Shown in pieces: positions 3,934 through 63,535 of a DNA stretch of 64,000 nucleotides. The translations under genes were made by a program, and so were the position numbers. The DNA is from Eledone cirrhosa (taxonomy: Eukaryota). How positions within the stretch are numbered: position 1 is the stretch's first letter; every line of letters begins with the position of its first letter. A model generated the notes under the pieces. The model had not been told where the DNA came from. It made no database searches and saw only the letters and a program-made list of their open reading frames with translations. The stretch lies in the NCBI GenBank assembly GCA_964016885.1, contig OZ024743.1, positions 322,028,001 to 322,092,000 on the forward strand, read 5' to 3'.

Positions 3934-4181
3934 ATTTATTTATGTTCATATACGTAACAAAAAGCGCTACCTAAGGTTTCAAGGTCCGATTATGACCATC
4001 TCCCAAGAGATGTACACGGCGGTGTAGAGTGGAAGACTGATCAAATTTATGACTAAGTCGTCACATGCTTTTTGATCACTCTTCCACTCCGCACTACAGC
4101 ACACAATCTGGGGAGACGGTCATGGTTGGACCTTGAAACTTTAAGTAGTGCTTTTTCTTCTGTGTATGAACATAAATAAAT
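3934..4181. repeat. Diverged inverted repeat with ~110-bp arms
   Basis: atttatttatgttcata / tatgaacataaataaat, gtttcaaggtcc / ggaccttgaaac, gagtggaaga / tcttccactc. Confidence 0.85.
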
Positions 4182-6854
4182 TATATATGTGTGTGTGTGT
4201 GTGTGTGTGTGTGTGTGTGTGTGTGTGTGTGATATAAATTCAAAATAGGGACCGCACAGGACAAAGACAATGGAAAAGAAACAGCAGAAAGACTGACAGC
4301 CCCATCTCCTAAGTCAACCTCTGGAGATCACTACGGTTTCAGTCCACATTGGGACATAACAAAACAGGTAGAGACAAGTTTTGCCTTTGGACAAATTACA
4401 TATAGTGTGCGCAAGGGCTTAGTCAAAGGAGAAAAATATAGAAAGGAGAGAAATAGTAAAACAGAAGGGAATAAGGACTGTTGTCCAACGTGTAGACAAA
4501 GAAGGACTCTGAGGCGTCGAAAAGGGTGAATAGGGGAAAAACAGGCCGGGAAATGTGATGTCTATTATATGATAATTTCAAAAAATGCCTGCATGGCTAA
4601 GTCTTTAGAATATAAATTTAAAATAGGGAGCGCACGTATATATATATATATATATATATGTGTGTGTGTGTGTGTGTGTGTGTGTGTGTGTATGTGTGTG
4701 TGTGTGTGTGTGTGTGTGTGTGTGTGTGTGTGTGTGTGTGTGTGTGTGTGTGTGTGTGTGTGTGTGTGTGTGTATTCCACTTATCCTGCCGAGGTTAACT
4801 TTGCCTTTCATCCTCACGGGGTCGATAAAATAAAATACCAGTAATGCACTGGTGTAATTGCTGGCCTTGTGCCAAAAGTAGAAACAATTATTATTAATGT
4901 TTTCTCTCTTCTTTCTCATCTTCTGCAAATCTTCCAGGAACGCAGCCTTTGCAAGCCCTAAAAATAATTTTGTTCTCTTGATTCAAGACACACACACACA
5001 CACACACATTTTTAATATTTTATATTTTATATTTGATAAGAATTTTATACCAATCAAAACCGATTATATTTAATGCACCAATTATAAAATTATTCATTCT
5101 GTCGAAAAAATAATCTTTAAATAATCTGTGCATTTTCACCTTTACTTTTTAACTATAACCTTTGATTTGTATGGAACTTTACCCCGTTTTGCAACTATAT
5201 ATATATAAACAGTCAATCGACAAGATCCCAGACCTCATACGCTTAAAGTTTGGAGTGGAGCTCGTAAAATCGGACCGGGGAAACAATGTTTCCATTTGTC
5301 TTTCAATTGCAAATACTATCTACCGGTTGCAAATCCAGGCAGAAGGAGCAACGTGAAATTCAAGGACATAACGCATTGTCCGCTCTGGGAATCGAACTCG
5401 CACCCTCATGATTGCGAATCCAACTCCCTAATCTCTCAGCCATTATATATATAGTAGAAACAGGAACGTCCGTGATACAGTAAAGTACATATGATAAAAT
5501 GATAAGAATTACTTTTTTGGTGGGTGGTAGTCTTTAATGGTCGAATGTTTTACAACGTGTTGTACTTGTAAAACACACACAAGCATGCCAAATGTATATT
5601 TAGGTACGTACGCACGTGTGTATGTATGTGTATGAGTATACATTTTTGTCTGTCTGTGACAAAATATTCAAATGTTCAGGATGTTTCTGTTAACTTGTGT
5701 TGTATATTTTCCCAAAAGATTTCATATTTTAATGGTATTTGACGAATATTTTTATACAATACACACAAAAAAATTACTCTAGTACTCTCGTGTGGGAACG
5801 ACTAAGTAATGATAGCAGCATAGTATATAATATATTCCAAATATACATAAAAGAACAAGACAGTTAAGTGCAATTTTGTGAAGATTCTCAGAGCAAATAA
5901 ATATTCAATATAGAAAAACTAGTTTCTCAGACATTAGCAGGTTTCAGGTGATTGAACATTCTCATCAGTAAGACATAATAACATTTAATTACAAAATATT
6001 CTAATGCTTCTCTAACTCAGATGGTCCGGAAATATTTGAAAAAGTTAGAATAAAAATTCATGGTTAAGATGATATTTAACCAACACAAAATATCTAGTCT
6101 TTTTAATATTACACACAAATCACATATCGCAATGTATTGTTTAATAACTCGCCAACGTAAATAGAACGAGAGACACAATGAGAAAATTCTACACACAAAA
6201 TATAAAAACTTGAATGGTCGTGTGAACAAGTGTTTGGTGAACTCGTGAATGAATGAATGTGTACTTGAATGAATGAACGAATGCAAGGAACAATTACTGA
6301 ATGAATGTGTGGCTGAATGTAATCAGTCCAGTTGTTGTTATTGCTGATTTTATTAGGAGGCGGGGTATCGTTTAGCTCTGAATAATCCAGAGTCTAGCAG
6401 TCAATAGTGGATTCAGACATGCATTTTCGAGTTTAATGCGTGTAGCACCTTGGGTAAGGTTTGACAAAATCTATATTTAGCAGAGTCGTTAGAACGTCAG
6501 GTAAAATGCTTTCGGCTCTCAGTTCAAATCCCGCCGAAATCAACTTTACTTTTCATTCATACAAAGTCGATACAAAAGGTACCAGTCTAGTACTGAGGTC
6601 AATACTTCCTCTGTGTTTCTTTCTCGCTCCCATTCTCTCACTCTCTATCGTTCTCTGGAGGAAATCTATATTCAAACCTGGAGAAGAGAACGGCTCCACC
6701 AAGGTTTAAAAAATACCCTAGAAACTCCTTATGTCAATATGGCGCTCCTACGACTACCTCGTGAGTTACGAGACCATATTACACAACATTGTGTCGGACA
6801 AGAGGATAGGTACCGCAATCTCTTGGGGTACATAGTTATAACCATTGCGTTATA

Positions 6855-7331
6855 AAGTTCAAATTCTGCTGTCGTTGATTTTGCCTTTTACTTTTCTACG
6901 CTCGATAAAGAAAGTATGTTATGAACTGGAGGTAATTTAATCGAATATGCTCTCCTATGTAATTTGTGGTCTTGGTTCAATGCTAAAGTAATGGGTGGTG
7001 GTTTGGCAGTATCGGTAGAGCGTCAGACACCATGCTTTCCGCCCTCGCGGTTAACTTGGTTTTTCATCCTTACGGCGTCGATAAAATAAAGCACCAGTAA
7101 TGCACTGGGGTAATTGCGGGCCTTGTGCCAAAAGTATAAACATTACTTAGGGTGGTGGATTAGCAGTATCGGTAGAGTATGCTTTGCAGCATAAATTTAT
7201 GGCCTTTTACTTTCTGAGTTCAAATCCTGCCGAGGTTAACTTTGCCTTTCATACTAACGGGGTCGACAAAATAAAGAACCAGTAATTCATTGGGTTAATT
7301 ACTGGCCTTGTGCCAAAAGTAGCAACAATTA
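6855..7331 (+). mobile_element. Three head-to-tail SINE S1 copies
   Basis: Core motif at ~6880, ~7060 and ~7240, with heads at 6993 and 7150. Confidence 0.8.
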
Positions 7332-8310
7332 TAAAAACAACACAGTCTTCGTTCAGAAAGAATTGTTGTTGTTTAGCCCAAGGTCAGTCATAATTGAGCA
7401 GACCTATGATCAAGGGTGTTTTAACCATGACCATCTATGTTTGTTTCAGGCATCATGTTTCTAAAACTACATTATCGGCGAATTTGATTGCTCTTCCTAA
7501 CATGTTGTTTTTGTGTTCAAAAGTAAACATAGCAACAACGCTTTTTGTATATTGAATTTCATTTTTTCGTAAAAGTGGTTTCCTTTCTACGCTTAACGTG
7601 TTGGTCACCTAACATACACTCAGGTAGGACAGGGATCAACAGCTTATTTTAGTAAGGTTCGCTTTTGATTTTAGGATTTTTTTTTTTTTTTAGTTTTGCT
7701 CATGACCCACATGTCTTTCATATGATACGTTGCGGACAGAAATTTGAAAAAGCCACAGTAAACACCTCAACGGTGCCAATTGCCAACTCCTGAATTAGGG
7801 TAACATGCGTTATCAGAGGAAACCGGTGAAAGGTTATGTCGTTGAGCACAACTAGAGAATAGATGAATGGAAGTCTAGGAGACTGAATGAATGGAATGAT
7901 CCGAATTGACAAGATCCCAGACCTCATTCGCTTATCGAATAGGGTGGAACTCGTCAGAGAGGACCAAGGATACAATGTTTCCATTGGTCTTTTCAATTGC
8001 TAATACTATCTACCGGTCACAAATCTTGGCAGAAGAAACAATGTAAAATAAAGTGTTGTGCTCAAGGACTTAACAAATCGCCCGGCCCGGGAATCGATAT
8101 CTCAACCTTACTATTACGAACCCAACTCTCTAACCACTAAACCACGTACCTAGAAGACTTCGGTAGATTAATTACCGTGGTAGTTGTAGTAGAGGCAGAA
8201 TCTGATGTTTCAGACTCTTGTCTTGTGTCTGCAAGTGAAGAAGTGGGAGAGGTAATATGTGAGTGTTGTTTCCCTGACTAACAAATGACGAATGAATAGA
8301 ACGTAATAAT

Positions 8311-61889: not shown

Positions 61890-62510
61890 GTGTTTATTTT
61901 AAACTGTTTATAGTAGGAATTAATCTAAAATACACCCACCTTAATTTTATGTAAGAACCTCTGTTAAATTAAGTTCCAAACACCCCTGATTGTATGATTT
62001 AAAGTGTTTATATTTATCTAAATTAAAATTTATGCAAAAACCCCTGTTAAGTTGCGAGCGACTTTCTCATTGTTTTAAACGATTCTTTATAATTCCTTCG
62101 GATGTATTTTCTTCTGAAAAACACCCAACATCGCTACCCCAATGATGCAAATCCGGATGGTGTTGGTGAACGTTTTCTTGTATGTATGAGCCCATATGCA
62201 GACCGCCTCGTGGTCCCTGGGGACAGAATGGGGGAAACATTGCTACTGAGGAGGGCGAGAGAGATGCATTGGAATAGCATATCGGTTGATTTAATTCTTT
62301 GATTTCATTGCTATTCATCAGGATTGCAACCACCACCACCACCACATCATTCAAAAATGGTGATGATAGTAGCGGAACATTATTTCATTGGATAATACAC
62401 ATTGTCTCTCTTGCTTTCTGTTTCAGTATTATTTCAGTGTAAAAAATATAATTTATCAATATATGATATATATATATATATATATATATATATATATATA
62501 TATATATATA

Positions 62511-62875
62511 TACGATATTAACAAATGGAAACTATATTTATAAAACCATATTTATTTCATTATACATATTTCAAGGACACCAAGTTAAATTATGGTGTGC
62601 TACTATCCGGGAGCTTCCAACAGTAATGGTTGCATTTTTTAAGGGTATGTCAATATTTATTTATAAAACTGATCTATATTATATTTTATCTGATGAAAGC
62701 ACACCATAATTTAACTTGGTGTCCTTGAAATATGTATAATGAAATAAATATGGTTTTATAAATATAGTTTCCATTGTTAATATCGTATTTTTACTCCAAA
62801 TATTTGTTGAGTGTTTTATATCAGTTATAAAAATATTTGCTTGTTGTATCCCAACAATTTAAATAGAACTTTTAC
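62511..62875 (+). repeat. Inverted repeat (62511-62601 / ~62698-62786) with tail; PLE footprint
   Basis: Arms are reverse-complementary, the right arm overlaps the hammerhead, and a ~90-bp tail precedes (TA)n. Confidence 0.88.
62682..62746 (+). ncRNA. Hammerhead ribozyme
   Basis: tattttat-CTGATGA-aagcacacca...tggtgtcctt-GAAA-TATGTA-TA-atgaaata. Confidence 0.8.
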
Positions 62876-63294
62876 ATATATATATATATATATATATATA
62901 TATATATATACATCACCCTATTAGCCCCATTTACATACCAGCTATGTGAGAGCGAGAAACTGAATTCTAATTTTGTTTTTAATTTCGGCAAAGCCAGCCG
63001 TAAAATGGCCCCGTATGCAAATGAGGCTAATCAGCAGATGTATACTTTAAGAATTATTATATATTTTCAACAGTTCAAGCGGGTGGCAAAAAGAGATACA
63101 CAGACTTGACAAAGGCCAATAACCCAGAAACAACGTTGTTGACTGTTTCTCGACGTCACTGATAGAGCAAACGGATTTCGGTGGTCATCTAAAAACAGTA
63201 TAATGAGGCTTTTTACTTGTAAACGAATCGAATATTATTATTATTCGATATAAAACTCAAAAATACATATATATATATATTTTTTTTTTATTAC

Positions 63295-63535
63295 ATAATA
63301 AACAACACAATATAATTAGTCCATTACCAAAGGTTTCAGAAATCTAGACAATCCTCACAGAAATGTCTAGCTCGTTAATCAGAAGAACAAGCTAGACGTT
63401 TCTGTGAGGATTGTCTAGATTTCTGAAACGTTTGGTCTAGGACTAATTATATTGTGTTGTTTATTATTTAATTAAATGCATCTGTACTATATATAGAGCA
63501 TTCTTCTTTCTTTTACCTTTACTACGAACTACTTA
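63295..63535 (+). repeat. Inverted repeat with ~75-bp arms plus tail
   Basis: aataaacaacacaatataattagtcc...tctagct / agctagac...ggactaattatattgtgttgtttatt. Confidence 0.88.

Follow-up and report, generated by a model that had tools for sequence, protein, structure and literature searches.

The stretch analysed here (the window) comprises 64,000 nucleotides (nt) of Eledone cirrhosa DNA from a 3.0-Gb assembly (G000); it is AT-rich and dense in microsatellites, and the closest named relative of one of its proteins comes from an argonaut. An initial annotation had listed 14 hairpins in the window and had read them as products of Penelope-type retrotransposition into microsatellites. All 14 were located at their positions, with arms of approximately 40–190 nt that are 75–100% identical, and in each of them one arm lies flush with a microsatellite while the other runs on into a tail of 36–129 nt, i.e., the asymmetry described is present throughout. 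The description did not hold for a hairpin at 3934, which has no tail and sits between (AG)n and (TG)n. A de novo scan of the window returned 20 inverted repeats, 12 of which satisfy a strict footprint rule, that is (TA)n, arm, arm, tail and (TA)n in this order; the presence of (TA)n on both sides stands for these, and the hairpins at 25276 and 46061 miss the rule solely since (TG)n accompanied by a short TA run takes the place of (TA)n on their flush side. Enrichment of (TA)n flanks was also seen in the genome, where 38 of 127 inverted repeats from 80 segments of 10 kb placed at even distances (0.8 Mb; 74 of them from four large contigs; 20 of the 127 rows stem from one repeat-rich locus and were retained) carry the footprint, compared to 0.67% of 25,250 random intervals of the same length. 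The window is about twice as rich in TA as the genome sample (8.6% versus 4.1%) and holds head-to-head units at about four times its density; extrapolated from 38 per 0.8 Mb, the genome would contain in the order of 10^5 such insertions. The footprint is a real feature, and it is the known insertion signature of Penelope at very high density.

The hairpins had been assigned to unrelated families. Their sequences are distinct, but the 14 reduce to 10 families, A and B occurring twice, C three times and the others once (Table 1). Two of them, at 23735 and 49583, are not simple hairpins but hold 339 and 754 nt of element sequence between their arms, and lopsided units with nearly no hairpin had been overlooked (9915–10047, 27337–27434 and 15745–16231). 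Contrary to what the term ultra-truncated implied, the insertions are not uniformly short, the cores ranging from 37 nt to 6.7 kb across and within families.

Table 1. Units and coding remnants of the window (positions in the window).
Feature	Positions	Strand	Details
Family K hairpin	3944–4171	.	old (73%), tailless in the window; other copies have a hammerhead-like core and a tail
Family A lopsided unit	9915–10047	+	tailless arm 65 nt, tailed arm 12 nt
5'-truncated Hydra-like Penelope-like element	10425–13363	+	632-aa reverse transcriptase and endonuclease frame 10425–12323, hammerhead core 13271, between (TA)n runs
Family D unit	15528–15676	+	perfect 39-bp palindrome centred on self-complementary hammerhead helix III region
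J-related lopsided unit	15745–16231	.	tail at left
Family E unit	18498–18920	-	non-coding tandem unit of ~430 nt, type I hammerhead core, retrozyme-like
Family A unit	23738–24481	+	inverted tailless arm 173 nt, sense arm 515 nt, hammerhead core 24236, tail 60 nt
Family G unit	25278–25515	+	3' part of 259-nt tandem unit with tRNA-like head; arms reach back to acceptor stem
Family B unit	26852–27316	-	hammerhead core in both arms, tail ~92 nt
Family A lopsided unit	27337–27434	-	tailless arm 32 nt, tailed arm 7 nt
Family H unit	30505–30790	-	tail 42 nt
Family C unit	31242–31441	+	arm is 3' half of hammerhead-like fold
Family C unit	31571–31756	-	tail at left
Family C unit	42143–42347	+	inverted repeat
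Family I unit	46061–46317	+	old (80%)
Family A unit	49585–50574	.	long tailless arm on minus strand, short tailed arm on plus strand
C-terminal GIY-YIG endonuclease fragment	50067–50440	-	CX4CxxC linker; within the 49585 unit; PF01541, E 4.1e-05
Family F unit	50633–50929	+	3' end of non-coding tandem unit of ~2.4 kb with hammerhead core
Family B unit	62512–62875	+	hammerhead core 62690, tail ~89 nt
Family J unit	63281–63530	+	77% like a copy after a Hydra-like endonuclease in L135

The suspected Penelope origin was borne out by the GIY-YIG C-terminus in the spacer of the 49583 hairpin (PF01541, E 4e-5) and by five more families that join frames of Penelope-like elements (PLEs). Upstream extension linked 10 of the 14 hairpins to frames with a reverse transcriptase (RT) and a GIY-YIG endonuclease (EN) and one further hairpin, of family I, weakly; the remaining three belong to the non-coding families E, F and G. 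The RTs of A, H and the Hydra-like families share 22–26% identity across their alignable parts. As judged from sequence, the hairpins are the 3' ends of at least three distant PLE lineages and of non-coding passengers, and the single retrotransposition pathway envisaged initially is in this sense PLE-based but not the work of one element.

Family A is young and its best 150 of 35,685 protein candidates in G000 are 98–100% identical, at least five of them lying in frames of 1191–1240 aa in which RT and GIY-YIG are encoded together. A Pfam search with the full 1240-aa protein returned no family, the RT motifs being read by eye; the protein matches the RT of family H at E 3e-11. All 30 of the 30 loci fetched end at either of two sites 56 nt apart, nearly all of them into (TA)n. 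In full-length copies (L032, L033, L034, L035 and L046) the pseudo-long terminal repeat (pLTR) and the tail run on into the body, so that the tail represents the first part of the following unit; the pLTR is formed by a partial tandem in which the tail is the start of the body. A search of G000 DNA with the family A end gave no match, probably because very common words were skipped, and protein and pattern searches did work. One locus (L038; G000:C3:142378000-142387900) consists in its entirety of an inverted duplication; its flanks match, and both of its family A ends are tailed. This arrangement may represent a later inverted duplication or an assembly fold-back.

For family H, the end lies approximately 2.5 kb downstream of an RT and GIY-YIG frame with CX4CxxC linker and CCHH motif in two loci (L292 and L293), which align at 95% on either side of a simple-repeat stretch; Pfam recognizes RVT_1 in L293 (E 1.4e-10) and GIY-YIG in L292 (E 1e-6). 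Relatives of family B lie after a Hydra-like EN in L144 and L151, relatives of family C after a Hydra-like frame in L147 and L295, and in L145 three copies of family D follow a Hydra-like EN, 250 nt downstream of it; in B, C, D and J no long TA run separates the Hydra-like EN from the family end. A CxCX5C linker without CCHH, CxxC and CxH motifs and a (TA)n target, as characteristic for the Hydra clade, are found in B, C, D, J and the window frame, the linker being clearest in the window frame, L135, L145 and L151, altered in L147 and lying outside the L295 and L144 frames. Some of the Hydra-like links depend on frameshifted copies, and no Pfam family was detected in the 632-aa window frame nor in four of eight locus frames. 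Family I has a degraded GIY-YIG-like frame approximately 400 nt upstream in L260 and L266 (E 0.002–0.02), a weak link. Tandem read-through or a pLTR was not seen for B, C, D, H, I and J. Hammerhead cores predicted from sequence have stems I and II in A, B, D and E and occur as core alone in F and J; the motif is non-canonical in C and K, none was found in G, H and I, and Rfam gave no hammerhead match at gathering score in eight loci. Chains of shared upstream sequence were confounded by neighbouring repeats and served only for the choice of loci.

The non-coding families E, F and G show tandem read-through between units, and in E and F each unit carries one hammerhead core (few loci; dimers or partial dimers). 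No PLE frame was found for the family F unit, and matches of family E downstream of family A frames were rejected as a link, these being separate insertions. In family G, 19 units of two loci (L287 and L288) reach or exceed the gathering score of the Rfam tRNA model RF00005 (best 47 bits), and ARAGORN makes six tRNA calls in five loci. In the arrays of L287 and L288 the anticodon loop varies from unit to unit, the ARAGORN calls being Asp, Gly and Ser. The family has at least 1,104 exact 20-mer matches in the genome, those listed being mostly dispersed, but also forms arrays of 17 and 28 units with a mean identity of 85–87%. Individual copies start and stop within the unit, their order being permuted, and even the 28-unit array carries an inverted arm without a tail as well as a tailed end that lies in TA. 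A canonical hammerhead core is absent, the commonest core-like word lacking the conserved A9. Family G resembles the family C pLTR only weakly (best z of 5.3 relative to shuffled sequences; E 1.3–25 with a three-sequence profile), families I and F also scoring z of approximately 3 in this test, and homology of the two is suggestive only. Taken together, family G is probably a tRNA-headed PLE passenger, and E, F and G presumably all borrow the PLE machinery in trans.

A common property of every family is the presence of two fixed end sites, the tail being the stretch between them (36–145 nt); in A, B, C and D the histograms of ends have two peaks. Exactly one tail was present in 86 of 87 head-to-head units of A, C, D, F and H (87 of 88 rows before one duplicate was removed). 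Family A alone shows one tail in 28 of 29 units, when approximately half would be expected if the two ends were independent, and this count is free of tail bias because the loci were fetched by protein. Similarly, one tail was found in 7 of 7 units of family B, in 15 of 15 of family I (from end positions, one arm ending at 161–163 and the other at ≤133) and in 31 of 33 head-to-head pairs of family G, in which two tails never occurred and 19 pairs had TA on both sides. Arm lengths, resolved in 69 of 86 units, do not follow the tail: the longer arm was the tailed one in 27 units and the tailless one in 26, and in the remaining 16 both were within 5 nt. Among untargeted units the tailless arm was longer in 11 of 21. 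The pairs of arm lengths are distinct in 65 of the 69 units and the junctions mostly unique. In family C the arms cluster at 50–60 nt, at the hammerhead-like stem, and in neither C nor D do the centres of the hairpins coincide with the cleavage sites predicted for the hammerhead. Read-through copies carry AT-like letters at the junction sites, and in the contexts examined TA-like letters form the end of both sites, suggesting short pairing with the target. The end formed by site 1 and TA was recovered in short-read contigs (83 in X1, 2 in X5).

These observations are best explained by two 5'-truncated copies of the 3' end that were joined head-to-head in (TA)n, likely in one event in which both cut strands primed reverse transcription, a reading to which we assign a probability of approximately 0.8. 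The GIY-YIG endonuclease would cut both strands of (TA)n, and from each 3'-OH complementary DNA (cDNA) would be primed on a tandem or circular RNA, at one or the other start site, aided by 1–5 nt of TA-like homology. Both cDNAs would stop early and then be joined, often at microhomology; near-perfect hairpins might arise if both cDNAs halt at the same structured region, e.g., the hammerhead. Going beyond the single insertion, we lean slightly towards the view that PLE proteins drive a SINE-like class (short interspersed nuclear element, SINE) of their own, with a 259-nt tRNA-headed unit, multimeric RNA, double priming and products ranging from fragments to 28-unit arrays, and that the one-tail rule over ten families records a dimeric RT/EN allotting one start site to each target strand.

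The alternative closest to this shares the PLE origin but has the inverted arm arise when one cDNA or RNA primes itself or folds back, with endonuclease resolution setting the tailless end; it was put forward for the Penelopes of Adineta (PMC3846280) and, as regards the tail, in PMC8557442. Perfect or nearly perfect palindromes with loops of 0–8 nt (15528, 31652 and 50633), the surplus of symmetric arms and the family D centre, which falls on a self-complementary hammerhead stretch, are all what fold-back would produce. However, a cDNA started at the tail cannot copy sequence that it never contained, and one started at site 1 has no tail. Fold-back of one cDNA therefore cannot yield a tailless arm that exceeds the tailed arm, and the 26 of 69 resolved and 11 of 21 untargeted units of this kind need two starts; that either arm can be the longer one favours two priming events, making fold-back as the general route unlikely, although some of the perfect palindromes could be fold-backs. 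Miniature inverted-repeat transposable elements (MITEs) or foldback DNA transposons targeting TA would share the inverted ends and the TA on either side, and target-site duplications (TSDs) are unreadable inside (TA)n, be they present or absent. Yet the wide range of core lengths within and across families, the unequal arms, the hammerhead cores and the ends that run on into RT and GIY-YIG frames, in place of symmetric terminal inverted repeats of fixed spacing, make this origin highly improbable, in agreement with the initial annotation. Just as little speaks for sequencing or assembly fold-back artefacts: the window joint was not seen in short-read contigs, but the arms diverge by up to ~25%, ends are family-specific with one tail per unit, and the end of site 1 at TA recurs in independent short-read contigs, so that an artefact is hardly credible. 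Cruciform breakage at (TA)n was rejected because TA would then lie at the centre of the palindrome and not at its outer ends.

For family G only, a tRNA-derived satellite or an ordinary SINE whose proximity to (TA)n is unrelated to PLE machinery has to be considered. The divergence within the 17- and 28-unit arrays fits an old satellite, and the lack of a canonical hammerhead core, the weak likeness to the family C pLTR and tailless ends that are more ragged than those of the coding families point in the same direction. On the other hand, the matches are numerous and, as far as listed, mostly dispersed, one tail accompanies 31 of the 33 head-to-head pairs, 19 being bordered by TA on either side, and copies are permuted, with the inverted arm lacking a tail and the tailed end lying in TA even in the 28-unit array. 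A long interspersed nuclear element (LINE)-type 3' tail and a monomeric RNA polymerase III unit, as in a SINE, were not found in family G, the ends of which are two internal sites in (TA)n. We regard the satellite or SINE origin as rather doubtful.

Several points weigh against joining of two separately primed copies, or against the PLE assignment on which it builds. The links of B, J and I rest on one or two diverged loci, and no partner protein was named for E, F and G. The one-tail rule has exceptions in L038 with two tails and the 3934 hairpin with none, and queries that contained the tail were used to retrieve the loci of C, F, H, I and part of G, in which units with two tailless ends are therefore under-sampled. 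Arm lengths were unresolved in 17 of 86 units. The joints of the 69 resolved units comprise 41 with apparent microhomology, 9 blunt ones and 19 with an insert, counts that were taken without a null model and in which 1–2 nt may match by chance. Arms are symmetric more often than in shuffled pairs (23 of 69 versus 16.0 expected, p ~0.009), an excess partly due to the choice of loci that may leave room for coupling or some fold-back. Moreover, the head-to-head joints of the window are known from the assembly, and the 50446 joint was not recovered in short-read contigs. Finally, the Poseidon element PAc of Anolis starts in vitro without target homology (PMC11167929), in contrast to the AT overlap of the present sites.

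The literature already documents inverted pLTRs and tails, the targeting of (TA)n and the existence of two RT start sites. PLEs with inverted 5'-truncated copies and a tail of 30–40 bp at either end have been described, as have the (TA)n bias of Naiad and Hydra PLEs and their linker motifs (PMC8557442). A and H, assigned by motifs alone, resemble the endonuclease-containing (EN+) PLEs of the Neptune/Nematis type in having RT and C-terminal GIY-YIG in a single frame, CX4CxxC linker and CCHH, an inverted 5'-truncated copy, a tail and a (TA)n target, with the pLTR tandem in A; they differ from them in tails of 42–60 nt instead of 30–40, and a canonical hammerhead was not found in the 3' region of H (PMC8557442). 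B, C, D, J and the frame at 10425 share with the Hydra clade (PMC8557442) the CxCX5C linker, CxxC and CxH close to the terminus, insertion into (TA)n and predicted hammerhead cores, but have tails of ~63–92 nt and, in family C, a non-canonical core. For PAc, two internal RT start sites bounding the tail were reported, both strands being cut and extended and a dimer being predicted (PMC11167929); the two fixed sites, the use of both strands and the AT-rich target are shared, while the sites found here both carry TA-like letters, and the available text of that study reports no count of one tail per insertion. A further study described a tail borne by one of the inverted pLTRs, palindromes at the junctions that were interpreted as self-priming, and mobilization in trans (PMC3846280).

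Hammerheads, circular templates and retrozymes are treated in PMC4209133 and PMC7761336, and retrozymes were tied to pLTRs in a preprint (bioRxiv 10.64898/2026.07.22.740005). Families E and F likewise appear to be non-coding tandem units with type I hammerhead cores, as animal non-LTR retrozymes are, which have been proposed to be PLE passengers (PMC7761336; bioRxiv 10.64898/2026.07.22.740005); here the ends of the insertions carry the PLE signature, the word 'tail' not occurring in the preprint text as available, and the F unit (2.4 kb) is far longer than that of E. Family G, a short non-coding mobile unit, shares a full tRNA-like cloverleaf with tRNA-derived SINEs and the Helenus miniature retrotransposons with terminal repeats (TRIMs; PMC10886601), but differs by permuted tandem units, PLE-type ends and (TA)n targets as opposed to a LINE-type tail or LTRs with TSDs. 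No published report of a strict one-tail rule or of a tRNA-headed PLE passenger was found, although supplements of the PLE papers may hold such families. What is added here is the quantified one-tail rule, tails longer than those described (36–145 nt) and the probable tRNA-headed passenger.

In twin priming of L1, a head-to-head inversion arises from two primers with a microhomology joint, largely non-overlapping segments and a poly-A end. The insertions described here are similar in their head-to-head inversion but, unlike in those of L1, the two arms span one and the same 3' end, each from a fixed starting site. A literature search covering few subscription papers found no report of twin priming in Penelope.

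How PLEs form inverted tailed insertions is an open question in the field, self-priming, endonuclease resolution and two-site initiation having been proposed and an in vitro system having been called for. The present genome offers approximately 10^5 events together with a young family with intact frames, which makes the one-tail rule and the arm-length pattern a direct test between these models. Furthermore, insertion ends provide a sequence-free means of recognizing PLE passengers. Hairpins in such genomes are liable to be mis-called as MITEs or as microRNA precursors; Rfam returned 270 matches on the window, and nearly all of the 150 listed are microRNA families, every one below gathering score.

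Further repeats accompany these units. Three hammerhead-bearing repeat ends lie beside (TA)n (13430–13715, 43458–43660 and 42400–42707, with cores at 13620, 43561 and 42604) and are probably more PLE families. A repeat family whose end abuts a TA or TACA microsatellite occurs at 24593–24874, 48322–48652 and 63699–64000, two of the copies being 97% identical. At 45843–45996 an internally deleted family C copy and one family D arm without a tail lie side by side within one TA run, which indicates repeated insertion into one microsatellite, and at 18142–18363 an inverted repeat has (TA)n at its centre, i.e., the geometry is reversed. A very abundant dispersed SINE-like repeat of ~200 nt is present in both orientations (4783–4897, 7149–7332, 8304–8499, 14041–14247, 19652–20114, 26541–26737, 44188–44382 and 58744–58931). 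Finally, a 20-nt satellite of ~303 copies with extreme strand skew (GC skew ~0.96) occupies 34001–40055 and is followed by a 40-nt satellite of 17 copies at 40657–41347.

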